DNA of 38,248 bases from Myxococcota bacterium (GTDB lineage: Bacteria; Myxococcota_A; UBA796; GCA-2862545), in the NCBI GenBank assembly GCA_039208735.1, contig JBCCQY010000081.1, positions 1 to 38,248 of the forward strand. Direction: 5' to 3'. Every line of letters starts with the position of its first letter. Position 1 is the stretch's first letter. Positions 4,864 through 26,339 of the stretch are shown here, in pieces. The translations under genes were made by a program, and so were the position numbers. The notes below the pieces were generated by a model. That model did no database searches, was not told the origin of the DNA, and saw nothing but the letters and a program-made list of their open reading frames with translations.

Positions 4864-5946
4864 ATGTTGTTGTTCGCACTGTCCCTTGCCACGACCGGGC
4901 CAGCCCTGGCCACCAAGGCCAAAGATGTTGGTCGGTTCTATGGGGTTCGCGAAAACACCCTATCGGGGCCTGGTCTCGTGGTGGGTCTGCGCCGCACCGG
5001 AGATTCGCCGAGCAATGCCGCGACCGTCCGGTCGTTGGTGGCTCGGCTCCAGGGCCATGGGCTTTCGATTCGCATTGAGGACGTCACGAGTCGGAACGCA
5101 GCCCTTGTGATGGTCCGTGCTGCGCTGCCTCCCGACTACCGGCCGGGTGACCGCGTCGACGTCACGGTTGCGAGCACCTCAGATGCCACGTCGCTTGAAG
5201 GAGGGATGCTGGTTTGGACGCCACTCTTCGATCAGAGCAAGCAGCTCGTGGCCATCGCAGAGGGACCGCTGGTGGTGGGGGGCTACGCGGCCCAGTCGGC
5301 GGGCAACACGGTGCGCAAGAATGCCCCTACTACGGCCATGATTCCTGGGGGGGCGCTCATCGAGCGCGAGAACGACCGCGCGCTCAACTATGCCGCGTTG
5401 GAGACCACCGAATTCGTGCTCGACCGGCCCGACTTCGCGACGGCCGCGGCGCTTGAAGACGCGGTCAATGCCGCGTTCGGATCGGAAGTGGCCCAGGCGG
5501 TGAGCGCTTCGACCGTACGGATGGCCATTCCGGAAGACCTTCGGGGGCGGTTCCCCAGATTTGCGGCCCAGGTTGAAGCCGTCGATGTTACAGTCGCGGC
5601 CCCGGCGCGGGTGGCCATCAACGAGCGAACGGGCACGGTGGTGATGGGAGGCGAGGTCACGATTTCGCCGGTCGCGGTGGCCCACGGAGGGCTGACCGTC
5701 GAAGTGCGTCGGGTGAACCAAGCCATCCAACCGTCACCTCTCTCCTTTGGGACGACCGCGGCGCTCTCAAATGTCGAGGTTGAGGCTAGAGAATCCGAAG
5801 GCAAGCTCCTGCTGGTCGAGGGTGCACAAATCGCAGACCTCGTCGCCGCCCTCAACGCGCTTGGGGTCAAGCCTCGCGACCTCGTGGTCATTCTGCACGC
5901 CATCCGAAGGGCGGGCGCCCTGCAAGCGGAGATTGTGACGCTATGA
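4864..5946 (+). CDS. flgI: Flagellar P-ring protein
   Basis: Signal peptide; GVRENTLSGPGLVVGLRRTGD, SRNAALVMV, DATSLEGGML, INERTGTVVMG, VAVAHGGL, ALNALGVKPRDLVVILHAIRRAGALQAEI. Confidence 0.97.
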   Translation: MLLFALSLATTGPALATKAKDVGRFYGVRENTLSGPGLVVGLRRTGDSPSNAATVRSLVARLQGHGLSIRIEDVTSRNAALVMVRAALPPDYRPGDRVDVTVASTSDATSLEGGMLVWTPLFDQSKQLVAIAEGPLVVGGYAAQSAGNTVRKNAPTTAMIPGGALIERENDRALNYAALETTEFVLDRPDFATAAALEDAVNAAFGSEVAQAVSASTVRMAIPEDLRGRFPRFAAQVEAVDVTVAAPARVAINERTGTVVMGGEVTISPVAVAHGGLTVEVRRVNQAIQPSPLSFGTTAALSNVEVEARESEGKLLLVEGAQIADLVAALNALGVKPRDLVVILHAIRRAGALQAEIVTL

Positions 5947-6620
5947 ATCCCGTGGATCTGGCTGGGGTTTCGTTTTCGGCGCTGTCTTCAGCTCCGCGTC
6001 CATCGGAAGAGGCCTCCACTTCGATGGTGTTTGCGCAAATCCTCGTCAAGGAGCTTCGCAGCGCGTTGCCCGAGGGGGGCTGGCTCGGTGGGGGACCCTT
6101 CGCGTCCTTTGAGACGTTGCTCGACGAGCAGTTCGCCACGGTGCTGGCCGAGCAGCTCGAGGGGCTCATCGAACCCCCACCGCACGGGGAAGGGATGGCC
6201 TTGCCAAGTCGAGGGCTTCCCGACGCGGTGCTTCCGGTCCGCGACGGACGCCTAACCTCGGCATTTGGCATGCGCACCGACCCCATCGACGGCGCCCATC
6301 GTCACCACGACGGCATCGATCTGGCCGCGCCCAAGGGCAGTCCGATCCGAGTCGTACGCGCAGGTCGGGTCACGCGTGCGCATGAGGTGCCTGGGTATGG
6401 GCGTCTCGTGGTCGTCGATCACGGACGGGGACTCGAGACGCGGTACGCTCACTGCGACGACATCCATGTTGCGGTGGGCGACGATGTAGCGGCAGGCACC
6501 GTGCTGGGCACGGTCGGCTCGACGGGCCGCTCGACCGGGCCCCACCTGCACTTTGAAGTTCGCCAAGATGGGACGCCCATCGATCCCGTGGCCACGGGGC
6601 TCGTGGACCCTCGAGACTGA
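5943..6620 (+). CDS. flgJ: FlgJ-like protein: Rod-binding domain fused to M23 peptidase
   Basis: flgJ position, ATGA overlap with flgI. N-terminal SMVFAQILVKELR...FETLLDEQFATVLA; C-terminal HDGID, YAHC, GSTGRSTGPHLHFEVR (M23 Zn ligands). Confidence 0.8.
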   Translation: MNPVDLAGVSFSALSSAPRPSEEASTSMVFAQILVKELRSALPEGGWLGGGPFASFETLLDEQFATVLAEQLEGLIEPPPHGEGMALPSRGLPDAVLPVRDGRLTSAFGMRTDPIDGAHRHHDGIDLAAPKGSPIRVVRAGRVTRAHEVPGYGRLVVVDHGRGLETRYAHCDDIHVAVGDDVAAGTVLGTVGSTGRSTGPHLHFEVRQDGTPIDPVATGLVDPRD

Positions 6621-6628
6621 TCTTGGAC

Positions 6629-6656
6629 CTTCAGCTCGGCGCTGGGGTGTCGAATG
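6629..6656 (+). promoter_or_regulatory. Upstream sigma28-like motif before flgM (CTTCA-N15-GTCGAATG)
   Basis: Same spacing and CTTCA box as the fliD motif; in tandem with the 6668 motif. Confidence 0.4.
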
Positions 6657-6667
6657 GTCGCGTCGCC

Positions 6668-6730: not shown

Positions 6731-7009
6731 ATGAAGATCGGTCGACTGCCCCCAATGCCCGCTCAGGACGGGACCGGTACCTCCGCGCCGCGCACCGCGA
6801 ACGGAGAGTCCTCTGCCGATGAGGCAACGAAAGTTTCGCTGTCGAAGGACGCCGCCTTCGTGGCAGACATGCGCAGCAAGGCGAACCGTGCGGTTCCCAA
6901 GGTGCGCGACGATGTCGTAGAGAAGGTGAAGGCGGAACTCGAAGCCGGAACCTTCGAAGAGAACACCGACATGCAGAAGGTTGTTGACGGCCTTCTGGCT
7001 GATCTCTGA
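6731..7009 (+). CDS. flgM: Anti-sigma28 factor
   Basis: KVSLS motif and PKVRDDVVEKVKAELEAGTF...VVDGLL C-terminus; size and position. Confidence 0.85.
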   Translation: MKIGRLPPMPAQDGTGTSAPRTANGESSADEATKVSLSKDAAFVADMRSKANRAVPKVRDDVVEKVKAELEAGTFEENTDMQKVVDGLLADL

Positions 7010-7024: not shown

Positions 7025-7336
7025 ATGACGCTGCCCGAGATGGTGGAACGGCTCGCTGAGTTGACGGAACAGCACGTCGCTGCGGCCGTGGCTTTGGATG
7101 CAGCCACGGTGGCGGCGATGGCTCGGCGCCGAGTCGACCTCCTTTTCGAACTCGACATTGCCCTTCAGTCCAAACCGACGCTGACCGATGCGCAAAGGCG
7201 AGAGACCAAGCAGCAGACCGAACGCCTTGCGCGTGCGGAACAACGCTTGGCTCACGTCATTGGTCACGTGCTGACGGTCCTGACGCCGACCGTCCCCTCG
7301 GTCTACGGCCGCACGGGGAGGCTCGGCTGGAGGTGA
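7025..7336 (+). CDS. flgN: FlgN-like export chaperone
   Basis: Small helical protein between flgM and flgK with C-terminal VYGRTG tyrosine motif; call mainly from synteny. Confidence 0.6.
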   Translation: MTLPEMVERLAELTEQHVAAAVALDAATVAAMARRRVDLLFELDIALQSKPTLTDAQRRETKQQTERLARAEQRLAHVIGHVLTVLTPTVPSVYGRTGRLGWR

Positions 7337-7337
7337 C

Positions 7338-8681
7338 ATGGGCATCCTCGATACGCTCCGAACAGGCGCAAGCGGCATCTTTTCGGCTTCGGCCGGGCTT
7401 GATGCGACAAGTTCGAACATCACACGGGCACAGCTCCCGGGTGCGACGCGGCGTCTTCTTGAACAATCCACCCGAGCCCCGCTTCGACAGGGCCTGGTCC
7501 ACATCGGACAAGGCATCCAGGTCGACGGCATCGTTCGCGACAACCCTGCGCTTCTCGGTGCGCAGCGGATTGCCGCGGCGGGCGATGCAGGGCAAGCCTC
7601 GACGCTCGCCGATGGTCTGCGGTTCGTCGCTCCACTCGTCGACGAGACGGTGTCAAGCGGCCCACGGAGCACGCTGACGGCGTTCTTCGAGTCGCTTACC
7701 ATGGCGACCTCGGACCCCGCTGACCCCAATCTGCGAACGGCGGTGGTGCAAGCGGCCGAGACGTTGGCCACCAGTGTGGTGCGAGCCGCGGAAGGGTTTG
7801 AGGCGTCGATGCGCGAGTTCGAGGGTCGCATCGAAGCGGGCGTCGCTCCCGTCAACGAGATGCTGAAGACCGTTGCAGCGTTCAACCGTCAAATCACGTC
7901 GGTCGAAGGGGCCACTCCCGACTTGGCCGACGAACGGGACCGCCTGTTGCGCGATTTGGGCGAACTCGGCGGCTTCGTGGTGCGGTTTGAAGCCGACGAT
8001 ACGGCCACGGTCTACCTCGACAGCCACATCATGGTTCAAGGCGACGTCGCGCGCACGCTCGACTACGAGCCTCCGGCTGGCTTTTCCATCCCGCTTGACG
8101 GCAGCAGCGTCACGGTTGAGGTGGGAGGCGCCATGCAGGGCTACGTAGAGGCCCATCAGGCGGTCCAGTCCTACGCCGACCAGCTCGATGACTTCGCGGG
8201 GGCGTTTGCCAACGAAGTGGGAACCACCATGGGCTTAGGCTTCACGGCCAACGGTGTGTCCGGCGGCCCAATGTTCGTCTTTGATGCGTCTAGCCCCGGC
8301 CTTACGTTTTCGGTGGCCGACGGACTCACGGGTGCCGATCTGGCCTTTGCTGGTCAGCCCATCGCGGCGGCCGGTGATGGCGAGAACCTCGCGCGTTTGC
8401 TGTCGTTGCAGAATCAATCCTTCGTCAACGGTCTGACGCCGGGCGACGCGTTGTCGAGCATCACCAACCAAGTGGCGCTCGATCTCGCGGAGGCCGAGCG
8501 GGCTCGAGAGCGCTCCGATGGCGTGCTCCTCGATCTAGACCAGCTGGCCGAGAACCTCCACGGCATCGATATTGACGAGGAGGCTACCAACCTCATCGCG
8601 TACCAGACCGCTTACCAAGCCTCTGCCCGCGTGGTGTCGACGGCTCAGGAGTTGGTCGGTACGCTCCTGGAGATCACGTGA
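7338..8681 (+). CDS. flgK: Flagellar hook-associated protein 1
   Basis: LDATSSNITRAQLPGATR, IGQGIQV, DLADERDRLLRDL, GIDIDEEATNLIAYQTAYQASARV. Confidence 0.93.
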   Translation: MGILDTLRTGASGIFSASAGLDATSSNITRAQLPGATRRLLEQSTRAPLRQGLVHIGQGIQVDGIVRDNPALLGAQRIAAAGDAGQASTLADGLRFVAPLVDETVSSGPRSTLTAFFESLTMATSDPADPNLRTAVVQAAETLATSVVRAAEGFEASMREFEGRIEAGVAPVNEMLKTVAAFNRQITSVEGATPDLADERDRLLRDLGELGGFVVRFEADDTATVYLDSHIMVQGDVARTLDYEPPAGFSIPLDGSSVTVEVGGAMQGYVEAHQAVQSYADQLDDFAGAFANEVGTTMGLGFTANGVSGGPMFVFDASSPGLTFSVADGLTGADLAFAGQPIAAAGDGENLARLLSLQNQSFVNGLTPGDALSSITNQVALDLAEAERARERSDGVLLDLDQLAENLHGIDIDEEATNLIAYQTAYQASARVVSTAQELVGTLLEIT

Positions 8682-9550
8682 TCGTTCGTCGACCTTTTGC
8701 GTCCACCACGGACGCTTCCATCCGCCGCCTTAGCGATCTGAAGGATCGGTTGGACCACCAGAATGTGGTGGCCGCGAGTGGCATCACGATTCAGGACGTG
8801 GATGACGCCGCAGGATTGTGGCGTCAGATCGACAACTTGAGCCAATCCCGGGTCAATCTCGACGCGTTTCTGACCAACGGTGAGTTTGCCGAATCGATCT
8901 TGCGGGTGGCTGACGTGGCCCTCCAAGAAGGGGCGGACGTGCTTTCGAGCGCGCGGGCGTTGGCGGTGTACCTCTCGAACGACTCGTTTGTGCCCTCGGA
9001 CCGGTCCGCACAGCTGCCCGAAGTCGAGCAGATGATCGAAAGCATCGTCCAGATCGGAAACGCCCAATATGGCAAACGATTTGTATTCGCCGGCACCGCC
9101 TACGATTCGGCCGCGTTCGATGAGGGCGGCACCTACCTGGGAACCAACGATGTGCCAAGTACTCAGGTGTCAGACACGCAGTTCGTGAACACGGGCTTCG
9201 ACGGTAGCGTCGCGATTGAGTCCGCCCTCGCGGCCCTTCAGGACTTTGCGAACGCCCTTCAGTCCGGTGATCAGGCCCAGGTGAACGCCCAGATCGATGT
9301 GCTCGACGAGGCCTTTCGTGACTTGGTGCTTCAACGTCAGCAGGTCGGCCACGAACAGTCCGATGTCGGCCGAATCAATGACCTCACGCGGTCGCTTCAG
9401 ATCACCGTGGCGGAATCCCTCGACCAGCTGGTGGGGCAAGATCCCATCGAGGCGTTGACCTCGTTGTCTGAACTCCAGTCGGCCTACCAGATTGCGCTGC
9501 AGGTGACGGCAACCCGAAGCTCCAACACGATCTTCGATTTCCTTAGGTAG
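8678..9550 (+). CDS. flgL: Flagellar hook-associated protein 3
   Basis: GTGA overlap with flgK; ASG..IQDVDDA, GNAQYGKRFVFAGT, DPIEALTSLSELQSAYQIAL, TIFDFLR. Confidence 0.92.
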   Translation: MIVRRPFASTTDASIRRLSDLKDRLDHQNVVAASGITIQDVDDAAGLWRQIDNLSQSRVNLDAFLTNGEFAESILRVADVALQEGADVLSSARALAVYLSNDSFVPSDRSAQLPEVEQMIESIVQIGNAQYGKRFVFAGTAYDSAAFDEGGTYLGTNDVPSTQVSDTQFVNTGFDGSVAIESALAALQDFANALQSGDQAQVNAQIDVLDEAFRDLVLQRQQVGHEQSDVGRINDLTRSLQITVAESLDQLVGQDPIEALTSLSELQSAYQIALQVTATRSSNTIFDFLR

Positions 9551-10068: not shown

Positions 10069-10097
10069 CTCAATCGGGCCGGAGTCGGGTCCGAACA
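10069..10097 (+). promoter_or_regulatory. Sigma28-like promoter of flagellin (CTCAA-N16-TCCGAACA)
   Basis: About 70 nt upstream of the fliC ATG; same subtype as the EAL-HDOD promoter. Confidence 0.65.
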
Positions 10098-10170
10098 TCT
10101 GGGCGAGTCGAGGAGCTGCTAGCCGGCACCTCAAGCCTTTTGAATCCGACCCCACGCAAGGAGGCCAACC

Positions 10171-11010
10171 ATGGCCCTGTCGGTCAACACGAATATCGCG
10201 TCGCTCGACGCCATCTCTCGCTTGAACATGACCCAGACCAACCTGACCAAGACGCTGGCTCGAATCAGCTCTGGGCTTCGCATCACGCGAGCGGGTGACG
10301 ATGCGGCCGGTTTGGGCGTGGCCGAGAACCTCTCCGCTTTGACCCGTTCACTGCGTATGGCGATGCGGAACACGAACGATGGCATTTCCGTGGTGCAAAC
10401 CGCAGAAGGCTCAGCGTCGGAAATCAGCAATATCCTGAAGCGGATGCGAGAGCTGGCCATCCAGTCCGCGTCGGAGACGCTCGCCAACTCGGAACGAACC
10501 TACGTAAATGACGAGTTTGCGGAACTCGGTGCGGAAATCGACCGTATTGCCGAGGTGACCGAGTTCAACGGTGTGCCCCTCACCGACGCGGGTGCCGTGG
10601 CGACGCTGCAGGTACAGGTGGGCGTGGATGGCACGGCGAATAGCCGGGTGGCCATCAACCTGACGAACCTCCGTTCCGACTCCGCGAACATGGGCGTCGA
10701 CACGGGTAGCATCGACCTGCTGACGGCAGCCAACGCCCAGGCGGCCATCGCCAACATCGACTCCGCGCTCGACTTTGTGAACCAGGTTCGTTCCGGCTTT
10801 GGGGCCACTCAGAACCGTCTCGAATCGGCTTACCGTCAGCTCGACAACTACTTCCTCAACCTCACGGAATCCGAGTCCCGGATCCGCGACACGGACTTTG
10901 CGTACGAGTCGGCACAGATGTCGAAGTACCAGATCATGCAGCAGGCCGGCGTCGCCGTGTTGTCGCAGGCCAAGAACATGAACGCGCAGGCGGCCCAGCT
11001 CCTTCAGTAA
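10171..11010 (+). CDS. fliC: Flagellin (minimal, 279 aa)
   Basis: MALSVNTNIAS, RISSGLRITRAGDDAAGL, RNTNDGISVVQTAEG, RMRELAIQS, GATQNRLE, ESRIRDTDFA, QQAGVAVLSQA; RBS AAGGAGG. Confidence 0.99.
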   Translation: MALSVNTNIASLDAISRLNMTQTNLTKTLARISSGLRITRAGDDAAGLGVAENLSALTRSLRMAMRNTNDGISVVQTAEGSASEISNILKRMRELAIQSASETLANSERTYVNDEFAELGAEIDRIAEVTEFNGVPLTDAGAVATLQVQVGVDGTANSRVAINLTNLRSDSANMGVDTGSIDLLTAANAQAAIANIDSALDFVNQVRSGFGATQNRLESAYRQLDNYFLNLTESESRIRDTDFAYESAQMSKYQIMQQAGVAVLSQAKNMNAQAAQLLQ

Positions 11011-11088: not shown

Positions 11089-12453
11089 ATGTCCATCACC
11101 ATCGACGGCGTTTTCTCCGGATTCGATACGACCGCCCTCATCGAAGCCATCCTCACCGGCTCCCGGCAGCGGATCATTCTTCGCGAAGGCCAAGTTAGCG
11201 ACAACCAGATCACGTCGGACAGACTGTCCGAGATGTCGGGTTTGCTCTCGAGCCTGTCGAGTCGGATTGAGACGCTTCAAGGCACGAGCGGAGGCATCGA
11301 GTCCCAGGCGTTCACGACAAGCTTCGCCGAGGGATTCGGATTCACCGCAGAAGCGGGTGATGGCGCGGTGCTCGGCACCTACGACATCGACATCGCGAGT
11401 CTGGCCACCGCACAGATCGAATCGAGCAACGAGACCTACGCCGAGCGTTCGACGACTGGGGTGATGGGCCAAGGGACCATCGCTATCGATATCGGGGGCA
11501 CGGTCACCGACGTGACCATCGACTCGACCAACGATAGCCTCACGGGGTTTGCTGACGCGATCAACGCGGTCAGCGGGGTCAGTGCCTATGTCCTCGACAC
11601 GGGCGATGCGACCAACCCCTACCAGCTGATCGTTCAGGCGGAACGGACGGGGGCAAGCAACGCCTTCACCATCGACACGTCCGGACTCTCGGGCGGTTCG
11701 GTGCCCACGTTCTCGAACGTGCAGGCCGGAGCGGATGCGGCGCTGACCGTTAACGGCATCGCGGTCACGTCCGATTCCAACACCATCCAGGCCGTGCCGG
11801 GCTTGACCATCAATGCCACCCAGGCAGGACTCGGCAACAGCGTGGTCACGGTGGGCTTCGACTCGGCTGCGTTCAAGCAGCAAGTGGAAGACCTGCTTAG
11901 CGACTACAACGAGATCATTACGTTCTACGATGCCAATACGGCGTTTGACACGGACGCGAACACGCAGGGTCCGCTGAACGGCGAGAGCGTCGCGAGAAAC
12001 ATCGTCGACCGCATCGGGACCCTGATCTCCGGGAACTACACCAGCGTTTTGGGTTCGTTTTCCCTTCTCGCCCAGATCGGTGTTCAGACCCAGCAAGATG
12101 GGACGCTGCTCCTCGACTCGCCGACGTTTGACGCCGCCGTCGAGAACAACTTCGATGATGTCGTTGAGGTGCTTACGAGCGCCGACGGCCCGCTGTCCGC
12201 GCTCAAGGCTCAGATCGATGATGTCTACATCAACTCCGATGGGCTTCTCGACAGTCGACGCGACACCCTCCAAGACGAGATTGTTCGTCTTCAGGAGGAC
12301 ATCGAGCGCGAAGAAGAGCGCATCGAGAGCCGTACCGACACCCTTCGCGCTCAGTTCACCAGGTTGGAAGAATCCCTGGCCGAACTCCAGAGTTCTGGCA
12401 ACTCCCTTTCTGCCCTGCTCAGCACCGCCCCGTCCGGTGGCGCAGGCATTTAG
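11089..12453 (+). CDS. fliD: Flagellar filament cap protein
   Basis: GVFSGFDTTALIEAIL, GTYDIDIASLATAQ, DAALTVNGIAVTSDSNTI, QIGVQTQQDGTL, LRAQFTRLEESLAELQS. Confidence 0.95.
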   Translation: MSITIDGVFSGFDTTALIEAILTGSRQRIILREGQVSDNQITSDRLSEMSGLLSSLSSRIETLQGTSGGIESQAFTTSFAEGFGFTAEAGDGAVLGTYDIDIASLATAQIESSNETYAERSTTGVMGQGTIAIDIGGTVTDVTIDSTNDSLTGFADAINAVSGVSAYVLDTGDATNPYQLIVQAERTGASNAFTIDTSGLSGGSVPTFSNVQAGADAALTVNGIAVTSDSNTIQAVPGLTINATQAGLGNSVVTVGFDSAAFKQQVEDLLSDYNEIITFYDANTAFDTDANTQGPLNGESVARNIVDRIGTLISGNYTSVLGSFSLLAQIGVQTQQDGTLLLDSPTFDAAVENNFDDVVEVLTSADGPLSALKAQIDDVYINSDGLLDSRRDTLQDEIVRLQEDIEREEERIESRTDTLRAQFTRLEESLAELQSSGNSLSALLSTAPSGGAGI

Positions 12454-12468: not shown

Positions 12469-12843
12469 ATGAACGGCATTGCCCGCTACAAGCAGGCGCG
12501 GTCCAGGGTCGAGCCCGAGCAGCTGGTCCTTTTGCTCTTGCAGGAGGCGGTCGTGCGGCTCACTCGTCTCGAGTCGACCTCGGGCAACGATCCGCGCTGG
12601 GTCCAGGACCTGCACCATGTGCGGGCGATCGTGCTCGAACTCTTCGATGGGCTCGACCCATCCGTCGATGAGACCCTGGTGAAGCGCCTTGCCAACCTCT
12701 ACCAGTGGTGCCTCGAGGAGCTGATTCGCGCAGGCAACGAACGTGAGAAGGATGTCATCGTACCTGTGCGCAAGGTCCTGGAAACCCTGCTCGAAGCATG
12801 GCAGCACATTCTCAAGGATCCAACGCCACCTGAGGCCGCGTGA
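12469..12843 (+). CDS. fliS: Flagellin chaperone
   Basis: YKQ...PEQLVLLL, IVLELFDGLD, LANLYQW, LETLLEAW; follows fliD. Confidence 0.9.
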   Translation: MNGIARYKQARSRVEPEQLVLLLLQEAVVRLTRLESTSGNDPRWVQDLHHVRAIVLELFDGLDPSVDETLVKRLANLYQWCLEELIRAGNEREKDVIVPVRKVLETLLEAWQHILKDPTPPEAA

Positions 12844-13130
12844 ATCCTCATCCTCTGGTGGCGGAGGCAAAGCGACTGCTCGACCAGGAGCACCTCGACC
12901 CCGACGAGTTGAATGAGCTGTCGCAACAGGTGCGGACGAAGCCCCCCACCGAGCCCGACACGGCTCGCGCGTTGCTTGCCCTGATCGAGACCCTAAGCCA
13001 GCGGGTGTCGACGGAACTCGACGTGCTGGGCCATGCGCTCAAGGAAGCCGCTGCCTCGAAGAAGGCACTGGCGGGCTATGGCTTCGTGAAGCCAACCGTC
13101 AAGAACCAGCACGCCAACAAGGTCGTCTGA
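12840..13130 (+). CDS. Small helical protein in fliT position (FliT-like chaperone?)
   Basis: GTGA overlap with fliS; helical with C-terminal ALAGYG; synteny only. Confidence 0.55.
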   Translation: MNPHPLVAEAKRLLDQEHLDPDELNELSQQVRTKPPTEPDTARALLALIETLSQRVSTELDVLGHALKEAAASKKALAGYGFVKPTVKNQHANKVV

Positions 13131-14800: not shown

Positions 14801-15043
14801 ATGATGTGGTCGATCGGAGTCTTGGCGACAACGTGGGCGGTGGAACCGCCTGCCGATACCGGCGAAGTGCTCGACACGGGCATGCCCGCGGCGGAGGACA
14901 CGGCTCCGCCGCGAGCGCGGTCCGCCGCCGAGCTGGCGGGCGAGACCGGCGGGTGCCGCTGTAGCTCGTCGTCCCCCTACGCTCCGTGGCTGGGCGGGGG
15001 GCTTGGTCTGCTCGTGGTCGCCCGAAGGCGGGTGGGTCCATGA
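14801..15043 (+). CDS. Small secreted protein with MYXO-CTERM-like sorting tail
   Basis: Signal-like N-terminus, acidic linker, then GGCRCSSSS-PYAPWLGGGLGLLVVA-RRR. Confidence 0.7.
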   Translation: MMWSIGVLATTWAVEPPADTGEVLDTGMPAAEDTAPPRARSAAELAGETGGCRCSSSSPYAPWLGGGLGLLVVARRRVGP

Positions 15044-18321: not shown

Positions 18322-18948
18322 TCACAGCAGAAGGTCGATGAGTTCAGCCATCGGATTGCGACCGAGGATCCAGGGATAAAACAGGCTACCCAGCCATCCG
18401 TGGACCACGGCAAGAGGCCAGAGGTTCCGGTAGCGCTGGAACAACGCCACATAGAAGCCTCCCATGGCCGAGGTGGCGGCCCAAAGTGCAGGGTGCTCGA
18501 GATGGAGTAGGCCAAACCCGATGGCTCCAATGAGCACGAGCCATCCTCGTCCGAGTTCTGCCACCACCCGCAAGTTGTCGATAAACAAGCATTGCACAAG
18601 CCATTGCTGCACCAAGCCCCACAGTGGGTAGAGCAGCATCGACAACCAGAGGTAGCGCGGAACGAGTGGCCGACCGAGCGACGTGGCCCACATGCCGCCG
18701 GCTGCAACGAGGATCACGAATGGCAACGCCAGCACGCTTACGATCGAGCCAAGGTTTCGGGTTGGCGCGAGGCCCCACTGGCGGGAACGTTCGCCTGCGT
18801 TGGCGAGGAGATAGCCTCCCCAAAGCAACATGCAGCCCACGATGAAGGTGGCGAGAGGCTCGATGGGATCCGGCGGCTTCGGAATGGCCAGAAAGGCCAA
18901 CGCGGTCACGGACACCATGGCGAGTTCAGTTGCGGGACCCAGTTTCAT
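18322..18948 (-). CDS. CPBP (Abi/CAAX protease-like) intramembrane protein
   Basis: Multi-TM; FGLLH and RNLWPLAVVHG motifs; motif 1 reads QQWLVQ instead of EExxxR. Confidence 0.75.
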   Translation of the reverse strand: MKLGPATELAMVSVTALAFLAIPKPPDPIEPLATFIVGCMLLWGGYLLANAGERSRQWGLAPTRNLGSIVSVLALPFVILVAAGGMWATSLGRPLVPRYLWLSMLLYPLWGLVQQWLVQCLFIDNLRVVAELGRGWLVLIGAIGFGLLHLEHPALWAATSAMGGFYVALFQRYRNLWPLAVVHGWLGSLFYPWILGRNPMAELIDLLL

Positions 18949-19353: not shown

Positions 19354-20466
19354 TCAGCGAACGATGGCACGGAGGGGGGCGCTGACCGGAGAGGAGAGCA
19401 GGTGCCGGGTGGCGTCGAGCCAGGCGGCCACCTTGGCGAGTTCTTCCTCGGGGCAGCTCGGCTCATAAGACACCCCGAGGCGCACACCGTCGGACCGTAC
19501 CGCGACGTTGCGCAGGCTCACGGGCAAAATAGCCACTTCCCCCATCGTGGGGAGGTGCAGCTGGATGGTAAACCCGGGGCCCAGGCGGCCGGCTCGCCGC
19601 GCGTCGAGGTCGACCTTCAACCCGATGCCGCTCGCCGAGATATCCACGACCTCGGCCGGAAGACGGCCCAATGCGCAGACCATGGTGACCCCGGCCGGAT
19701 TCGAAGCTACCGGGCGAATGCGCATCGACCGGCGCAGTTCGAGTGCGGTGGCGAGATTTCCGGGCAACATCGAGGCCTTCAAAGGAGGGTCGAACTGAAA
19801 CACCCACTCGGCCAGGTCGAGTTGGCCGCCTCGTGCGGGGGCCAGAACGATGGTGCCCGGCAATTCGACGTAGGTCTCCTCGACCGAGACCTCGAGCCCC
19901 ACGGGGAGGCCCGGCACGAGCATGCCCGATTGACTGGGCGTGACCCCGAGTACGGCGGCCTCAAGGGAGAGGTCCAGCACCGCAGCCGGTGAGGTTCGCG
20001 GACCGACCGTGAGCCGCGCCTGTAGATTGTCCAGGCGGGCGATGCGCCGGCGCCGGTCTTCTGTCGTGGGGTCGCGCAGGCGTTCTTCGGTTCGGGACAG
20101 GTGCGAGGCCAGGTCGTCACGCTGTTGCCGAAGCAGGCGCAGCCGCATCACCATGCGGCCTCGGGCTCGTTCGAAGGCCTCGCCTAGAGGCGCGAACTCG
20201 TCCCATCGCATGGGGAGCACGAGCGCCACGTTGCGGTCTTCATCGTCGGTTCCGAGTCGTTCAGCGCCTTGTCGGAGCAGGTCGAGGTCTTCGGCCGAGC
20301 GATGACGGGCCCAGGCCATCGTGAACAGAACCGAGAGCCCGACGAGGAGCCCGACCGACCCCCGAATCACGACCGATGACGCGTCGGCGTCGGCCATGGG
20401 TACAAGCAGGGGCCCCACGGCCGCCAGTGCCGTGCACAGCCATTGGATGCGGACCCAGCTCTGCAT
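19354..20466 (-). CDS. Membrane protein with HAMP-like linker and tandem PilZ domains
   Basis: Two N-terminal hydrophobic segments, DEFAPLGEAFE HAMP-like motif, coiled coil, degenerate PilZ (RRRRIAR...DLSLEA), canonical PilZ (RRSMR...DISASG). Start set to ATG 20466 because the longer ORF overlaps flgB. Confidence 0.8.
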   Translation of the reverse strand: MQSWVRIQWLCTALAAVGPLLVPMADADASSVVIRGSVGLLVGLSVLFTMAWARHRSAEDLDLLRQGAERLGTDDEDRNVALVLPMRWDEFAPLGEAFERARGRMVMRLRLLRQQRDDLASHLSRTEERLRDPTTEDRRRRIARLDNLQARLTVGPRTSPAAVLDLSLEAAVLGVTPSQSGMLVPGLPVGLEVSVEETYVELPGTIVLAPARGGQLDLAEWVFQFDPPLKASMLPGNLATALELRRSMRIRPVASNPAGVTMVCALGRLPAEVVDISASGIGLKVDLDARRAGRLGPGFTIQLHLPTMGEVAILPVSLRNVAVRSDGVRLGVSYEPSCPEEELAKVAAWLDATRHLLSSPVSAPLRAIVR

Positions 20467-20501: not shown

Positions 20502-20570
20502 CGGAGAAAATGCGTGGAACGGCGTTGTCGGCGGGGCAGGCTCGTTTGGTGGATTCCCTTCTCGACGCGG

Positions 20571-20598: not shown

Positions 20599-20622
20599 GC
20601 CCTCCGCACAACGGGGAAGCCG

Positions 20623-21027
20623 ATGCCGACGATGTCGATGTTCGACCCGATGATGAACGCGCTGCAACGCGTGCTCGACCTACGCCAGCAACAACACGCC
20701 GTGACCGCGAGCAACCTTGCGAACGCCGAGACACCTGGGTTTCGGGCCAAGGTGCTCGAGTTCGACGAGACGTTGTCGGCCATCATGAAGCGGGCCCAAA
20801 GCGAGATGGTCAACCAGCGTGTGCCGGGCCACGTCACGCGTTTGGCGGTGCAAGCCCCTGACATCGAAGAGGTCGCGCCGGCCCCCTGGTCGACCGACGA
20901 CAATTCGGTGCTTCCCGAAAGAGAAATTGCGCGGATGCAGGAAAACAGCCTCATGTACCGTGCCGTGGCCGAGGGATTGTCTCGACGCCTTGCCCTTCTC
21001 AAGTATGCCGCTAGCGACGGGAGGTAG
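20623..21027 (+). CDS. flgB: Flagellar basal-body rod protein
   Basis: LDLRQQQHAVTASNLANAETPGFRAKVLEF, DDNSVLPEREIARMQENSLMY; ATG 20623 after GGGGAAG. Confidence 0.95.
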   Translation: MPTMSMFDPMMNALQRVLDLRQQQHAVTASNLANAETPGFRAKVLEFDETLSAIMKRAQSEMVNQRVPGHVTRLAVQAPDIEEVAPAPWSTDDNSVLPEREIARMQENSLMYRAVAEGLSRRLALLKYAASDGR

Positions 21028-21032: not shown

Positions 21033-21449
21033 ATGGACCTTCTCGATACCTTCAACATTGCGGCCAGTGGCCTGACGGCCCAGCGCGTTCGCGTGCAGAC
21101 GATTTCGTCGAACCTGGCCAATGCACGCACCACCCGCACCGCCGACGGAGGGCCCTACAAGCGTCAGGCCCCTGTGTTTCGGTCCCAGGCGGCGACCTTT
21201 GGATCGGTACTCGATCGCACCATCGCAGGCGTTCAGGTGGATCGCATTGCCGAGATCGACGATTTGCGCATGGTGTTCGACCCTCGACACCCCGATGCGG
21301 ACGCCGAAGGCTTCGTGGCCATGCCCGACATCGATGTCATTGGCGAGATGGTCGACCTGATGTCGGCATCCCGGTCGTACGAAGCTGCACTCAACGCGGT
21401 CGACACGACTCGTGAGATGGCGATGCGAGCCCTCGAGATTGGGAGGTAA
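21033..21449 (+). CDS. flgC: Flagellar basal-body rod protein
   Basis: ASGLTAQRVR, SNLANARTTRT, GPYKRQ, DPRHPDADAEGFVAMP, EMVDLMSASRSYEA. Confidence 0.97.
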   Translation: MDLLDTFNIAASGLTAQRVRVQTISSNLANARTTRTADGGPYKRQAPVFRSQAATFGSVLDRTIAGVQVDRIAEIDDLRMVFDPRHPDADAEGFVAMPDIDVIGEMVDLMSASRSYEAALNAVDTTREMAMRALEIGR

Positions 21450-21451: not shown

Positions 21452-21775
21452 ATGATTCGCGGAGTCAACGGCCTCCAGGCCTACGCACGCGCGCTTGGCA
21501 CATCCGGCGTCGACGCAAACATGCCGAGCGATGTGGTGTTGCGGCCAAACGATGGGCCCGACTTCACGGCTACCTTGACCCGGGCGCTGGGTGCGGTCGA
21601 GACCCAACATGCCACGGCCGACAGCGTGTTGGCGGACCTCGCAAGCGGCGACAGCGTCGACCTGCACGCCACGATGATCGAGCTTGAAAAGGCCGACATC
21701 GCTCTTCGAACCCTTGTGTCCGTCCGGGACAAGTTCATCGCTGCCTACGAGCAGGTGATGAACATGAACGTCTGA
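21452..21775 (+). CDS. fliE: Flagellar hook-basal body protein
   Basis: LASGDSVDLHATMIELEKADIAL...VRDKFIAAYEQVMNM. Confidence 0.95.
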   Translation: MIRGVNGLQAYARALGTSGVDANMPSDVVLRPNDGPDFTATLTRALGAVETQHATADSVLADLASGDSVDLHATMIELEKADIALRTLVSVRDKFIAAYEQVMNMNV

Positions 21776-21779: not shown

Positions 21780-23336
21780 GTGAGACCTGCGTTGGAACGG
21801 TGGCTTGCCCTTTGGGGTGAGCTCGACATGAAACGCCGCGTGCAGCTTGTCGTCGTCACTCTGCTGACGATTGGCGTGTTGGTGACGGTGGGGGTGTGGT
21901 CGGCCACGCCCGCTTGGCGCCCCTTGCTCGAGGGGCGCGCCTACGACGAGCTGCTCGATGCGGCGGCCTCGCTAAGCGATCAGGGGATCCGGTACCGCAT
22001 CAAGGACGGGTCGCTACAGGTCCCGGCGGGTGAACTCGGTGCAGGAAAGGCGGCGTTGGCGACCATGTCCGACCTGCCTGGCTTGGCCGATGTCGGCGAT
22101 CTGCAATTGGGGCTGACCCCGGCCGCCCAGGAATGGGCGTTCCTTCGTGCTCGCGAAGGGGATTTGTCGAGGGTCATCAACGCGATTGACGGCATTGCCG
22201 CCTCGCGGGTCAACCTGGTCCCCAGCAAGGAGTCTCTGTTTCTCGACGAGGCCCAGCCCGCCCGTGCCTCGGTGTTCGTGCGGCTGCGTCCGGGGCGAAG
22301 CATTGGAGACACGCAGGTTCGGGCCATCACGAACCTGGTGGCCGGCGCGGTCGAAGACCTCACCGCGGACCGGGTGGCGGTCGTGGACGACCGTGGCAAT
22401 TTGCTCGCCGAGGGAGCAGGACCCCGGGCCAACACGAGCGATGTGCCCAATGAACTGTTGGCGTATCGGTCAGACCTCGAGCGGCACTACGAGCGCGCGG
22501 TCTCCCAGGCGTTGTTGCCGGTCGTGGGATTCGACGGAGGCTTTTCCGTCACCGCTTCGGTCGACATCGATCTGACATCCACCGAAACCGTCACCAAGCG
22601 CATGGACACGAAGACCCAGGCGCTCATGTCGGAGCAAATCGACGAGTCGAACAGCGAGCGGGAAGCCCCGGGCGGCGTTCCCGGCGTCGATGCAAACCTT
22701 CCCGAGCGGCCCGCTCAAGGGGCCCAGGGAAAGACCCGCGAAGAGAAGAGCACGCTCAAAAACGACTACATTTACCCCACCGTCGACGAAATCTCGCGCC
22801 GGCCCGCGGGCGGCATCAAGCGCGTCGCGGTGGCGGTGCAGGTCGACAGTACCAAGGTGGAAGAGATGGCCAAGGTCGCCGGGGTCGAGGCGACCGAGGT
22901 GCAAGGCCAGATCAAGCAGGCCGTCGAGGCGGCCATCGGCATGGACAAGGGACGCAACGACCAGGTCATCGTCAACTTCATGCCGTTTTCGCAGGACGAC
23001 CTGTCGGAAGAGGCGGTGGGAACCATCACCGCCACCGTCTTGGCCCATGACTCGATGCCGTACTTGCTCGTGGCGTTGGCGCTCATCCTCGCCTTCGTGT
23101 TCGTGGTGCGCCCCTTGGTTGCAAGCGTCACAAGGCCACCTCCCTCGCAGTCCGAAGAGGAGCAGCTCAAGGAAGGCGAACTCAGTGAGGAAGAAGCCGA
23201 TGAGCTGCTGGCCCAAAGACTCCAGCAGCTGGTTGAGAACTTCGTTCCCGTTGACGCCCTCGAGTTGTCCGAACTCGTGAGTCACAACCCCCAGGCGGCC
23301 GCCAAGGTCCTGAAGCAGTGGCAAAAGTATGGCTGA
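21780..23336 (+). CDS. fliF: Flagellar MS-ring protein
   Basis: N-terminal TM, RAREGDLSRVI, SKESLF...ARASV, LVAGAVEDLTADRVAVVD, GGVPGVDAN, second TM, NPQAAAKVLKQW. Confidence 0.95.
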   Translation: MRPALERWLALWGELDMKRRVQLVVVTLLTIGVLVTVGVWSATPAWRPLLEGRAYDELLDAAASLSDQGIRYRIKDGSLQVPAGELGAGKAALATMSDLPGLADVGDLQLGLTPAAQEWAFLRAREGDLSRVINAIDGIAASRVNLVPSKESLFLDEAQPARASVFVRLRPGRSIGDTQVRAITNLVAGAVEDLTADRVAVVDDRGNLLAEGAGPRANTSDVPNELLAYRSDLERHYERAVSQALLPVVGFDGGFSVTASVDIDLTSTETVTKRMDTKTQALMSEQIDESNSEREAPGGVPGVDANLPERPAQGAQGKTREEKSTLKNDYIYPTVDEISRRPAGGIKRVAVAVQVDSTKVEEMAKVAGVEATEVQGQIKQAVEAAIGMDKGRNDQVIVNFMPFSQDDLSEEAVGTITATVLAHDSMPYLLVALALILAFVFVVRPLVASVTRPPPSQSEEEQLKEGELSEEEADELLAQRLQQLVENFVPVDALELSELVSHNPQAAAKVLKQWQKYG

Positions 23337-24372
23337 GGATAGTGCGCCTAAACCCCAAGGGGCCCAGCTTGACAAGCCGGATGGGCTGACCGGGCCGCAA
23401 CGCGCGGCCATCTTGGTGATGTACCTGACGCGCGACGTCGCGAAAGACGTGCTGCGGCACCTCTCCGATACGGATCTGGAGCAGGTGGGCGCCGCCATGG
23501 CGGCAGTGGAACAGGTGTCGCCCAAAACCATCGAGATCGTGGTCGAGAAGTTCATCCGGGACATGTACGACGCCTGCCTTGTGCCGAGCACAGGGCCCGA
23601 GTACGCGCTCGAGACCCTGCCCCAGCTCGTCGATGAACCTCGGCGCCCCCGGCTTGTGTCGGCCCTCCGGCGCCGTTTGTCCGACCGTTTGGCCGCAGCG
23701 GTGGCCAAGCATCCGCCTCGAACCGTCTCGACCGTCATCAAGGACGAACATCCGCAAACCCAGGCGGTGGCGTTGTTGTTGATGGGGGAGGACAACGCAG
23801 CGGGCGTGTTGGCATGCTTCGACGAGGACGAACGGGCCTCGGTGGCGCTTCGGATGGCGCGCATCGAACGCATTCCGGCTGCCTTGGCCGATGAGGTAGA
23901 GGACGGCCTCCTTGCCGCGCTCGAAGACAAGGGCGTTGGCGGCTTGGTCATGCCGGGCGTGGACCGTACGGCGAAGATCTTGGGTCGCCTGCCCGGCGAC
24001 GAGCAACAGGCCGTTCTCGATGGCATTGCCAAGGGCGAGCCAGAGCTTTCCGACACGCTCCGCCGACGCATGGTCGTCTTCGATGACCTCGGACGCCTTG
24101 ACGACCGCTCGATGCAGACGCTGCTCAAGAGCATCGAACGCGAGAAGTTGGTCATCGCGCTGCGGGGAGCCGGGGACGACATCCTCAACCTCGTCATCCG
24201 CAACATGTCGAGTCGGGCCGCCAAGGACCTCGTCGAAGAGATCGATGTGCTCGGGCCGAAGCCCAAGGCGGTGGTCGAGCAGTCGCGCGAGGAGATCGTG
24301 CAGACGGTGCTTCACCTTCGCGAAGAGGGCGCCATCGTGCTGTCCTTCGGCGACGAAGCGGAGATGCTCTAA
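23329..24372 (+). CDS. fliG: Flagellar motor switch protein
   Basis: LTGPQRAAIL, EHPQTQA, MVVFDDL, NMSSRAAKDLVEEI torque-helix region. Confidence 0.96.
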   Translation: MAEDSAPKPQGAQLDKPDGLTGPQRAAILVMYLTRDVAKDVLRHLSDTDLEQVGAAMAAVEQVSPKTIEIVVEKFIRDMYDACLVPSTGPEYALETLPQLVDEPRRPRLVSALRRRLSDRLAAAVAKHPPRTVSTVIKDEHPQTQAVALLLMGEDNAAGVLACFDEDERASVALRMARIERIPAALADEVEDGLLAALEDKGVGGLVMPGVDRTAKILGRLPGDEQQAVLDGIAKGEPELSDTLRRRMVVFDDLGRLDDRSMQTLLKSIEREKLVIALRGAGDDILNLVIRNMSSRAAKDLVEEIDVLGPKPKAVVEQSREEIVQTVLHLREEGAIVLSFGDEAEML

Positions 24373-24375
24373 GCC

Positions 24376-25017
24376 ATGTCGCAGCCCTTCGAGCCCTTTC
24401 CTGAAGTTGCCCGACCGTTCGACGCCTGGCGGCGTGAACGCTGGTTGCCACCGGCTCCGCCGCCGCCGCCCGACCTCGAGGTGCACGGACCGCCCGCGGT
24501 GGACCCCGACGAATTGCCGGGGCTCCTCGCCGAGGCTCGAGAGGCGGGAGCCCAGGCGGTTCGAGAGGAACTGGAGGGCGAACTGACGTCCTTGCGGGAA
24601 ACCGTCGAGCATCTGGGGCCGGTGCTCGACGACCTCGCGCGATTGCGGCATGCCACGCTGCTGACCGCGGCCGAGGACGTGGCCGAAATCGTGCGCCTGT
24701 TCGCCCGCAAGGTGGTGGGGGACTCGGTGGTCCTGCACCCGGAAGCCCTGCCGCGCATCGTGAAGGAAGCATTGCAGCAATTGCCTGATGCAGACGAGGT
24801 GACCCTGGTTGTCTCGCCGCAGGCGTCGGAATCGTTGAGCCGGCATTTGGATTCGAGCCTCCGAGAACGACTCACCGTCGACCCGGAGCTTGGAGAAGGC
24901 GTCATCGTGCGCACCCATCACGCCACGCTTGACGCCACCTTGCGCCACGCCGAGCAGGCCCTGGATAGCGCTATCCAGAGCTGGCTTTCCGAGCAGTGGT
25001 GGGTCGAAAGCCCGTGA
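24376..25017 (+). CDS. fliH: Flagellar export ATPase regulator
   Basis: Between fliG and fliI; ARKVVG, LVVSP, VDPELGEGVIVRT...LDATL C-terminal domain. Confidence 0.85.
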   Translation: MSQPFEPFPEVARPFDAWRRERWLPPAPPPPPDLEVHGPPAVDPDELPGLLAEAREAGAQAVREELEGELTSLRETVEHLGPVLDDLARLRHATLLTAAEDVAEIVRLFARKVVGDSVVLHPEALPRIVKEALQQLPDADEVTLVVSPQASESLSRHLDSSLRERLTVDPELGEGVIVRTHHATLDATLRHAEQALDSAIQSWLSEQWWVESP

Positions 25018-25028
25018 AGGAGGGGGCG

Positions 25029-26339
25029 GTGTCGCTCAAGCTCGATGCCCTGCGCGAAGCCGTGGCCCGTACGCCGATCGCGAAGATTCATGGTCGCGTC
25101 ACGCAGGTGCTGGGTCCCCTTCTCGAAGCGGATTTACCCGGAGCGGTACTTGGATCCCGTTGCACGGTGGGCCGCGATCGTCCCTGTGAAGTCGTGGGCT
25201 TTCGGGGTGAACGCGCCCTGCTCGTTCCGCTTGGCTCGCTGGTCGGCGTCGCCCACGGAGACCCCGTTGAAGTGCGTGACGAGACGCTTCTCGTGCCGGT
25301 CGGGGAGGGGTTGCTAGGACGCGTGTTGGACGCGTTGGGCCGTCCAAAAGATGGAGGCCCGGCGTTTTCGGACACGCGCATGCGCCCTATTCAGGGTCGA
25401 CCCAGAGACCCTTTGCGTCGCGACCTTATCGAAACGCCATTGGCTACCGGGGTCAAGGTGATCGATGGGTTGATGCCGGTGGCTCGCGGCCAACGGCTCT
25501 CGATTACGGCGGGTTCAGGCGTAGGCAAGTCCACCCTCCTCGGCATGCTCGCCCGGTGGGTCGAGGCCGACGTCGTCGTCGCCTGCTTGGTGGGGGAACG
25601 AGGCCGCGAGGTGCGCGAGTTTCTCGAACACAGTCTAGGTGACGAAGGCCGGAAGCGAACCGTCTTGGTCGTTTCGACATCCGACGAGTCGCCAGCCCTC
25701 CAAATCAAGGCCCCGCAAACCGCGAGTGCGATTGCGGAGTGGTTTCGCGACATGGGCCGCGATGTCCTGCTCCTCGTGGATTCGCTCACCCGACTGGCCC
25801 ATGCCCAACGTCAGGTGGGGCTGGCCGCAGGCGAACCTCCCACCACGCGGGGCTACACGCCGTCGGTGTTTGCCTTGCTTCCGCCGTTGCTCGAGCGAGC
25901 GGGCGCAGGAGAGGGCGGAGGGAGCATCAGTGCCTTCTACACGATTCTCGTCGAAGGGGATGATGAGCACGACCCCATCGCCGACGCGGTGAGAGGCATC
26001 GTGGACGGTCACATCGTGCTGTCACGATCGCTCGCTAGTAAAGGCCATTATCCGGCCATCGATGTGCTGCGGTCGCTCTCGCGGGTGGCCCACCGGGTGA
26101 GCGATCCCGCCCACCATACCGATGCGTCGCGGTTTCGCCGCTTGCTCGCCACGTGGGAAGAGAACGAAGAGCTTGTCCGGCTGGGGGCCTACAAGCGCGG
26201 CGCCTCGGCGGAGGTGGACGAAGCGCTGGCGCGTCACCCCGCGATGGTGCACTGGATGCAGCAGACCGAAGATACCAAAGTCGACAAGGCCGAAACGCTC
26301 GCCCGGCTCCACGGCCTGCTCGCGGCTCCCCTCGAGTAG
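25029..26339 (+). CDS. fliI: Flagellar export ATPase
   Basis: Walker A AGSGVGKST, GERGREVREF, LLLVDSLTR, GEPPTTRGYTPSVF, DPIADAVRGIVDGH. GTG 25029 follows AAGGAGG; alternative start 25014. Confidence 0.97.
   Translation: MSLKLDALREAVARTPIAKIHGRVTQVLGPLLEADLPGAVLGSRCTVGRDRPCEVVGFRGERALLVPLGSLVGVAHGDPVEVRDETLLVPVGEGLLGRVLDALGRPKDGGPAFSDTRMRPIQGRPRDPLRRDLIETPLATGVKVIDGLMPVARGQRLSITAGSGVGKSTLLGMLARWVEADVVVACLVGERGREVREFLEHSLGDEGRKRTVLVVSTSDESPALQIKAPQTASAIAEWFRDMGRDVLLLVDSLTRLAHAQRQVGLAAGEPPTTRGYTPSVFALLPPLLERAGAGEGGGSISAFYTILVEGDDEHDPIADAVRGIVDGHIVLSRSLASKGHYPAIDVLRSLSRVAHRVSDPAHHTDASRFRRLLATWEENEELVRLGAYKRGASAEVDEALARHPAMVHWMQQTEDTKVDKAETLARLHGLLAAPLE

Follow-up and report, generated by a model that had tools for sequence, protein, structure and literature searches.

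The window analysed here is a whole contig of 38,248 nucleotides (JBCCQY010000081.1, C81 below) from an assembly labelled Myxococcota bacterium (GCA_039208735.1; genome G000, 9.40 Mb in 288 contigs, 92.7% complete with 6.15% contamination), and it carries a flagellar gene cluster at 4864..26339. We scanned 46 of the 187 listed open reading frames (ORFs) of the window against Pfam and NCBIfam and recognised 15 flagellar genes (flgI, an M23 peptidase gene, flgM, flgK, flgL, fliC, fliD, fliS, flgB, flgC, fliE, fliF, fliG, fliH and fliI), to which position adds flgN and fliT; all lie on the plus strand without an internal stop. The original prediction, made from the letters of this DNA, had listed uninterrupted ORFs for flagellin, cap, hook junction, P-ring, rod, MS- and C-ring and export ATPase, and each of these is present and open. 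Together with genes on other contigs, the cluster very probably encodes a complete flagellum with chemotaxis, likely inherited within the class and likely used for swimming, with a predicted sodium stator, a predicted scaffold of the FlgY/PflA type and a predicted outer-membrane barrel that is likely an accessory. The features are as follows, where dN/dS is the ratio of nonsynonymous to synonymous substitution rates against G001, a genome of the same genus, and f1, f2 and so on are families of relatives.

4864..5946, plus: flgI, P-ring protein (Pfam FlgI, 1.6e-105; NCBIfam above cut-off)
5943..6620, plus: M23 peptidase at the flgJ position (Pfam Peptidase_M23, 6.4e-34; 3' of flgI in relatives of f1, f2, f5, f6, f11 and f8)
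6731..7009, plus: flgM, anti-sigma-28 factor (Pfam FlgM above cut-off)
7025..7336, plus: probable flgN chaperone by position (no family matched; kept between flgM and flgK in four relatives, 29-46%)
7338..8681, plus: flgK, hook-filament junction (TIGR02492 above cut-off)
8678..9550, plus: flgL, hook-filament junction (TIGR02550 above cut-off)
10171..11010, plus: fliC, flagellin of 279 amino acids (Pfam Flagellin_N and Flagellin_C; dN/dS 0.07)
11089..12453, plus: fliD, filament cap (Pfam FliD_N and FliD_C)
12469..12843, plus: fliS, flagellin chaperone (Pfam FliS)
12840..13130, plus: probable fliT by position (no family matched; 3' of fliS in relatives)
13332..14762, plus: Ser/Thr kinase (Pfam Pkinase; in the same place only in G001, lacking there in G003 and the other families examined)
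14801..15043, plus: secreted protein of 80 amino acids with a MYXO-CTERM-like tail (TIGR03901, 17.8 bits, cut-off 20; dN/dS 0.29; family f1)
15040..15573, plus: probable PilZ-type receptor for cyclic di-guanosine monophosphate (c-di-GMP) (itself unmatched; conserved in f1 and f2; 5' of the barrel gene in 14 of 30 barrel loci)
15551..16132, plus: predicted 8-stranded outer-membrane beta-barrel (AlphaFold2 model, Foldseek, co-occurrence with FlgI; dN/dS 0.16)
16129..18291, plus: AMIN-like and TPR protein of 720 amino acids (AlphaFold2 pLDDT 84.6; dN/dS 0.17)
18322..18948, minus: CAAX protease (Pfam Rce1-like; shared with G001 only)
19354..20466, minus: membrane protein with a PilZ domain (Pfam PilZ at 1e-05 for the longer form of the ORF, 19354-20667; shared with G001 and G003)
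20638..21027, plus: flgB, proximal rod (TIGR01396 above cut-off)
21033..21449, plus: flgC, proximal rod (TIGR01395 above cut-off)
21452..21775, plus: fliE (TIGR00205 above cut-off)
21780..23336, plus: fliF, MS-ring (TIGR00206, 182 bits, above cut-off; injectisome SctJ model 40.5)
23329..24372, plus: fliG, rotor (three FliG Pfam domains; dN/dS 0.09)
24376..25017, plus: fliH (Pfam FliH)
24996..26339, plus: fliI, export ATPase (TIGR01026 above cut-off; Walker A intact)
26343..27563, minus: EAL-HDOD protein (Pfam EAL and HDOD; adjoins the cluster in two other f1 genomes, G016 and G023)

The structural genes of the window are all single-copy in the genome except flagellin. Every one of the 14 window genes compared with G001 is under purifying selection (dN/dS 0.045-0.29 by the Nei-Gojobori method, at dS 0.9-1.6), and these low values led us to reject a decaying relic. 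When FliG was aligned with PDB chain 8umd_B, four of the five positions that we take to be the charged residues of the torque helix were kept: R279 (for K264), R296 (R281) and E303/E304 (D288/D289). The claim that FliG retains these charges holds to that extent; the position of R297 is now P312, between K311 and K313. The genome holds five flagellins, the four further copies being 50-79% identical and lying on C62, C241, C24 and C170. That on C170 (9404-10237) has a divergent N-terminus and is 50% identical to the other four (76-79%). Each of the relatives G041-G045 gave 6-10 flagellin-domain matches, and some of the open frames that hold them run to 1,300-1,600 codons, which makes giant flagellins possible in these genomes. 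An inverted repeat (GTTCGGAC...GTCCGAAC) lies in the fliC leader at 10060-10120. A scan with one strict form of what we assumed to be the sigma-28 and sigma-54 promoter patterns returned no site upstream of the flagellar genes.

The rest of the machine was found on two other contigs. On one strand of C13 lie flhA-fliA-flgF-flgG-flgA-flgH, and on the opposite strand fliJ, a gene for an MgtE_N protein, an ORF of 334 amino acids at the fliK position, flgD, a gene for a TIGR02530 protein and flgE; C28 holds fliP-fliQ-fliR-flhB together with motA-motB-fliL-fliM-fliN-fliO. Export gate, hook, L-ring, stator, C-ring and FliA, for which the original prediction had proposed a search of the remaining genome, are thus all encoded, and neither the export gate nor the stator is missing. 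FlhA scores 793.7 bits on the flagellar model (cut-off 772.1) and 577 on the injectisome SctV model (cut-off 692), passing the first and failing the second. FliP is above its cut-off, the best-scoring models for FlhB, FliR and FliQ are flagellar, and the NPTH site of FlhB is intact. For chemotaxis there are two full CheA proteins, a third Hpt-kinase, CheW, CheX, four methyl-accepting chemotaxis proteins and CheR- and CheB-like ORFs read from the sequence. An ancestral single cluster is now in three blocks (C81, C13 and C28); since flgH lies directly 5' of flgI in several relatives, the separation of C13 from C81 came later.

On C13, fliA lies directly 3' of flhA (56117-59041), a gap that flhF and flhG occupy in other orders. 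The FlhF model matched none of 55 genomes of the order, in an insensitive search that passed over one FlhF-like ORF in G235, a genome of another order, where it separates flhA from fliA; placement and number of flagella may be under different control in this order. Near the flhA block, on the minus strand of C13 (67762-82337), are two giant ORFs of 2,513 and 2,338 amino acids that look polyketide synthase-like by sequence.

Sodium stators presumably carry Leu at the position of PomB residue 35; the equivalent residue is Met in the MotB of this genome, and among the 24 loci of the order that have MotB, 15 show Met and 9 show Leu. The MotB aspartate aligns with PomB D24, and MotA has the stretch RARREGLLSLE, the same as in 6ysf. 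MotA T161, T188 and T189 fall at the positions of PomA T158, T185 and T186, mapped by a +3 offset to the PomA residue list of PMC10374538 and not to a printed PomA alignment; P154, G157, G164, A185, A193 and D117 also fit this offset. The three threonines are described in that paper as conserved in all sodium-driven stators (PMC10374538), and the triad is present in 30 of the 30 close MotA loci that we examined (31 matches in 61 genomes of the order). From these residues, the stator is probably sodium-driven. Five flagellated genomes of the order that lack a close MotA were checked (G030, G009, G034, G019 and G304), and the stator of each is distant (about 27-34% identical): alanine occupies the first site and either alanine or glycine the second, which is the pattern of proton-type stators. 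Such divergent stators within one order point to repeated stator replacement, perhaps tied to the salinity of the habitat. A second, divergent MotA/MotB-like pair, which lacks the rotor-contact motif and is followed by an MgtE_N protein of 599 amino acids, lies at C71:29197-32351 inside an operon of secreted proteins without family assignment. G019 and G009 also have a second MotB-plug match, of similar length. The second pair is possibly a non-flagellar ion-driven motor.

Two genes within the cluster, those for the barrel and the TPR protein, stay together across the order. Of 30 barrel loci, 29 have the TPR gene directly 3' of the barrel gene and 25 have fliS no more than 1.5 kb away. The model of the TPR protein, built from a 10-row alignment, has an N-terminal hydrophobic helix, an 8-stranded beta-sandwich at residues 24-110 and a TPR solenoid. 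Residues 18-135 resemble AMIN-bearing models (TM-score 0.59-0.71; Atlas features 0.87-0.89), below the bar for naming a family. The protein is single-copy, with a long TPR array, and sits inside the flagellar cluster. Its possible partner is the MgtE_N protein of C13 (51050-51571, 173 amino acids), which scores above the MgtE_N cut-off, matches the FlbB model at E 1.3e-4 and lies 3' of fliI/fliJ in relatives; a PDB sequence search with this FlgY-like protein returned coiled-coil noise only. Because helix, sandwich and TPR make up the architecture of PflA and MotK and a FlgY/MotE/FlbB-like partner is encoded, we favour, as fairly probable, the reading that the AMIN-like and TPR protein is a periplasmic motor scaffold of the PflA/MotK type. 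FlgY is reported in 66% of flagellated species, and TPR proteins linked to flagellar clusters in 52% (PMC11870540), so the scaffold would be a part of a known sort; the TPR and FlgY genes of this order may already stand in the genome tables of that paper. An MgtE_N- or ARM-type protein and an AMIN and TPR protein are likewise encoded with flagellar genes for the FlgY E-ring and PflA spokes of Campylobacter, MotE and MotK of Cereibacter and the PflA-like TPR protein of Bdellovibrio (PMC11870540, PMC13023049, PMC5758724). We detected no sequence similarity between Campylobacter PflA and the TPR protein of the window, and the portions of these accounts available to us describe no 8-stranded outer-membrane barrel in the operon.

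The barrel at 15551-16132 is modelled with 8 strands (pLDDT 87.3), and Foldseek relates it to NspA (5e-08), to OmpA (TM-score 0.65) and to OmpW-type barrels. Its homologues number 160 representatives at E values up to 0.001, and no paralog was found among the called genes of this genome. A first profile (A2) matched 40 of the 401 genomes of the phylum, all in the order; set against FlgI, 37 have both, 17 neither, 3 FlgI only and 3 the barrel only. For a second profile (A3), scores of at least 98 bits are followed by 84 (G235) and then by 71 or less; above this gap, a threshold chosen after the gap was seen and with profiles seeded from flagellar loci, A3 agrees with FlgI in 56 of 60 genomes of the order (both 38, neither 18, FlgI only 2, barrel only 2). 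The mismatches are G016 and G349 with FlgI only, and G412 (fliS adjoining) and G369 (at a contig end) with the barrel only. Four genera are mixed for the barrel: in g10, g31 and g47 FlgI tracks it, and in g4 the barrel-bearing genome has fliS with FlgI unmatched. G235 has its divergent copy 3' of fliS-fliT-PilZ, so the barrel may be class-wide. We did not find a strong match in f18, the family of Persicimonas caeni (best E 3.7e-10). The barrel gene is kept and lost with the flagellum, and the protein may be an unrecognised flagellar part. Our tentative reading, which we hold at a little short of even, is that it would be an outer-membrane anchor or spacer beside the L-ring; ranked below this, it would be a co-regulated surface protein of swimming cells.

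Weaker A3 matches are mostly C-terminal barrels of proteins of about 800 amino acids, found in flagellated and non-flagellated members of the order (P0372, P0378, P0382, P0388; for example G008:C64 and G206:C14). As A3 also matches this paralogous barrel, matches below 72 bits were not counted as the flagellar barrel. One database protein of about 800 amino acids resembles a fused MXAN_2561/MXAN_2562 pair. The barrel of the window scores 25.7 bits on NF040596, the MXAN_2562 family (cut-off 100), and is outside that family. In Myxococcus xanthus, the surface-sorted SgmI (MXAN_2561), which is tied to motility, is co-transcribed with the predicted outer-membrane barrel MXAN_2562 (bioRxiv 10.64898/2026.08.28.747804). 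That pair is alike in placing a gene for a surface-sorted protein before one for an outer-membrane barrel; it differs in its pilus context as described there, whereas the pair of the window is flagellar, with a tagged protein of only 80 amino acids that is limited to family f1. Our literature search found no account of a flagellar outer-membrane barrel, which tests novelty weakly.

The assembly contains no 16S gene, so placement of the host rests on RpoB, a single gene read with submitters' labels. The nearest RpoB proteins carry uncultured labels only (Deltaproteobacteria, Alphaproteobacteria, Proteobacteria and Myxococcota bacterium). The RpoB tree has 77 rows, leaving out the stop-interrupted G201 row, an incomplete match in G020 and the weaker of two matches in G192. 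After 33 proteins from the database had been joined to it, a branch with support 100 parts the class from the clades labelled Myxococcaceae (P0200) and Polyangiales (P0189). None of 47 genomes of other classes falls inside these two clades; f14 is sister to the one labelled Polyangiales. Family f18 of the phylum groups with RpoB labelled Bradymonadaceae and Persicimonas, which supports a Myxococcota-related lineage as originally proposed, and the placement makes the host a relative of Myxococcota outside the fruiting myxobacteria; its class is probably UBA796. With a complete flagellar system in such a host, the proposal of a swimming member of Myxococcota or a sister lineage is upheld, swimming itself being likely from the gene content. 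The premise that cultured myxobacteria are non-flagellated is not supported: Anaeromyxobacter dehalogenans and P. caeni have flagella, and two thirds of the genomes of this order (40 of 60) carry FlgI. No type IVa PilT scored above cut-off in this 92.7%-complete genome (best PilT-like score, 104 bits of 319). A Tad pilus cluster is present at C60:37682-45085 (CpaB, secretin, CpaF and TadB/C-like), and a degenerate PilT-like ATPase at C98:21162-22094. C30:8231-19756 holds an Agl-Glt-like cluster with a TolQ/ExbD-type trio and GltG-, GltE- and GltC-like genes, all below cut-offs, which from its sequence would be a gliding or envelope machine of ancestral type.

Composition, gene order and trees agree on the history of the cluster. 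Contig GC is 0.635 against 0.639 for the genome, 58 of 93 similar-sized contigs lie farther from the genome mean in tetranucleotide use, and GC at third codon positions (GC3) is 0.754 for cluster genes and 0.755 genome-wide. FliG_C turned up in 24 of 41 relatives, all four others of the genus among them, and gene order is common to f1, f2, f5 and f6 (20 regions in 16 genomes). Among genomes at least 85% complete, counting this one and with kin that are not independent, FlgI is present in 168 of the 401 of the phylum; the order accounts for 40 (of its 60), the whole class for 54 (of its 78) and the remainder of the phylum for 114 (of 323). FlgI was lost repeatedly in sister genera and within genera. 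The FlgI tree (53 rows, quick mixture model, SH-aLRT support; 15 of the 30 phylum loci of the survey used, split Undibacterium FlgI excluded) recovers the genus (100), the order (17 rows, 98), the class (23 rows, 94) and other groups seen for RpoB. Because FlgI is frequent and its tree broadly follows that of RpoB, the flagellar system was likely inherited, by these sequences from the ancestor of the class.

Long residence, which had been proposed over recent transfer, agrees with the composition, GC3, shared synteny and trees, and on composition, GC3 and synteny the contig looks native and not chimeric; the impression that mobility genes are absent stands too, as no integrase or transposase family matched the 46 ORFs scanned. 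The accompanying argument from interleaved lineage-typical genes divides in two: the kinase, the CAAX protease and the second PilZ gene are genus-level insertions, and the TPR and barrel genes are constant members of the operon throughout the order.

Following known flagellar biology, FlhAB-FliPQR-FliO with FliHIJ would export rod, hook, junction, cap and the five flagellins via the FliF ring, FlgH and FlgI would form the bushing, and the M23 enzyme would open the wall. FliA and FlgM would time the late genes, MotAB would turn FliG, and CheA and CheY would switch FliM/FliN. Architecture and gene order further suggest that the 173-amino-acid MgtE_N protein would form an E-ring and that the AMIN-like and TPR protein would provide spokes that bind peptidoglycan and hold the stators. 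The weakest step is the barrel, which would act by the L-ring as anchor or spacer.

Several observations weigh against a working, inherited flagellum of this design. Swimming is predicted here from the genes. FliM is divergent (46.6 bits, cut-off 219.6), FlhB, FliR, FliQ and FliG fall slightly below their respective cut-offs, FliG has lost one torque-helix charge, and the ORF at the fliK position matched no family. The chemoreceptors are only four, and those scanned are PAS-type cytoplasmic receptors. FlhF and CsrA were unmatched when the genome was searched by tblastn with proteins of relatives, and the closest FlhG match was MinD. As for the scaffold, no PflA was among the 60 PDB sequence matches listed for the TPR protein; its fold matches are mostly generic TPR solenoids, as they were in a second structural look that barely probed the N-terminal domain, and the Campylobacter jejuni scaffold chain 9hmf_K ranks seventh by Foldseek (825 columns, TM-score 0.20), amid generic TPR proteins. 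Within the order, f2 joins f1 for FlgI (99) and joins f5/f6/f7 for RpoB (98, 91), so that the two trees disagree there. The FlgI tree has five alphaproteobacterial outgroups and none from other former deltaproteobacteria; without one from Desulfobacterota or Bdellovibrionota, an ancient transfer into the ancestor of the phylum is possible.

Of the other explanations, the one that survives best, though we consider it unlikely, is that the system is intact and silent, rarely used, or devoted to surface sensing or attachment instead of swimming. Swimming was not commonly seen in Anaeromyxobacter strain 2CP-C, as reported in PMC2330069, and here FlgI was lost repeatedly in sister genera and within genera, chemoreceptors are few, and the Agl-Glt-like cluster and Tad pili offer alternative surface functions; against this count the five flagellins, the strong purifying selection, the stator and rotor charges that are kept, and the report of flagellins among the top transcripts of predator metagenome-assembled genomes (MAGs; PMC11937823, in a text that leaves the phylum unstated). 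Far less probable is horizontal acquisition of the cluster, or a contig mis-binned from a flagellated non-myxobacterium. The contamination of 6.15% and the replacement of stators within the order, by which module transfer does occur, would allow it, but composition and GC3 are typical, the single-copy genes on three contigs make exactly one set, G001 and G003 have the same cluster with the same non-flagellar neighbours, and FlgI nests by genus, order and class. Composition, synteny and trees led us to reject recent transfer and chimera. That the genes make up a needle-less type III secretion system like that of Myxococcus, non-flagellar and serving to kill prey, is scarcely credible: such systems are described as typical of Myxococcales (PMC3459982) and reported for Bradymonadia, and FliI scores 510 on the SctN model too, but the genome encodes rod, hook, junction, cap, flagellins, L- and P-rings and MotAB, its FlhA clears the flagellar cut-off and falls short of the injectisome one, the search brought up a single FlhA-family gene and a single FliI, and we rejected this reading by gene content. 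A complete, likely swimming flagellum is thus the reading that we keep.

Flagella in relatives of the myxobacteria are already known, and a near-complete flagellar set in one, argued to be ancestral and not transferred, is described for A. dehalogenans 2CP-C (PMC2330069); strain K of the species swims. The 2CP-C genes form one 55.7-kb cluster with embedded che genes, in which, according to the portion of that account available to us, fliJ, flgN, fliT, flgA, flgJ and fliK were not found. The genome studied here belongs to a different class; its flagellar genes form three blocks, its che genes lie apart from them, FliJ and FlgA were recognised, and flgN, fliT, flgJ and fliK are assigned by position. 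P. caeni (Bradymonadia), a cultured member of a family in the same phylum, has flagella by electron microscopy and by genes, swims and glides, and shows the same patchy loss, with a sister genus lacking the genes (PMC7188933); it encodes flhF, which was found neither in this genome nor, in the insensitive search above, in 55 genomes of the order. Flagellar genes had, as the original prediction suspected, been reported in uncultured Myxococcota MAGs (bioRxiv 10.1101/2021.07.06.451402), and seamount predator MAGs express flagellins (PMC11937823). In the text available, these reports of flagellar genes and transcripts in uncultured predators run to a line each and give neither gene order nor trees nor accessory parts. 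Myxococcota also stand among the motile phyla listed by a 2026 preprint. Our search found no paper devoted to the flagella of this class (bioRxiv supplements were outside its scope), and the new leads are the barrel that goes with the flagellum and the exchange of stators.

Several neighbouring genes deserve mention. The N-terminal part of the M23 peptidase (5943..6620) was unmatched in Pfam; from its position, the enzyme is likely the wall hydrolase for rod passage. The Ser/Thr kinase at 13332..14762 is a recent insertion outside the conserved operon. Relatives of the ORF at 15040..15573 match Pfam PilZ weakly in two of five cases (E 0.003 and 0.027). The EAL-HDOD protein (26343..27563) likely takes part in c-di-GMP signalling, judging from its domains. 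A MYXO-CTERM-like tail had been noted at the outset, and it is indeed present on the ORF at 14801-15043, at a score below the TIGR03901 cut-off. Tailed proteins of relatives reach 15.3 and 17.9 bits in two of four scanned, and at least 25 other sites in the genome pass the cut-off (150 of 217 candidates scored). The tail, LAGE-x-GG-x-x-C, is found at 9 of the 30 barrel loci, a count that includes the locus of the window. Outside the cluster, a DUF1501 gene lies beside a DUF1549/1585/1588-like gene on the minus strand (28904-31907), preceded by one for a small CxxCH protein at 28561-28857, and an ORF of 511 amino acids (2217-3752, plus), unmatched in Pfam and NCBIfam, lies in a stretch of slightly lower GC (0.59).

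The survey quantifies an idea of 2008, that flagella are old and common in relatives of the myxobacteria (168 of 401 genomes) and that the non-flagellated lineages are losses, and it matters for how gliding and the needle-less type III system arose. It also suggests that many uncultured predators of the order swim in search of prey. Two candidate motor parts, the barrel and the PflA-like protein, come from a branch of bacteria in which, in the accounts available, only the Bdellovibrio motor has been imaged, with extra densities unassigned. A wider idea, which we regard as doubtful, is that the whole uncultured order swims with an outer-membrane motor part of its own, in which the barrel and a PflA-type scaffold would tie outer membrane, wall and stators together, and that stators of sodium and proton type are swapped within the order. 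If true, the barrel would be the first of the small OmpA-like kind to form part of a flagellar motor, and it would be a candidate for the unassigned density by which deltaproteobacterial motors have enlarged outer rings.

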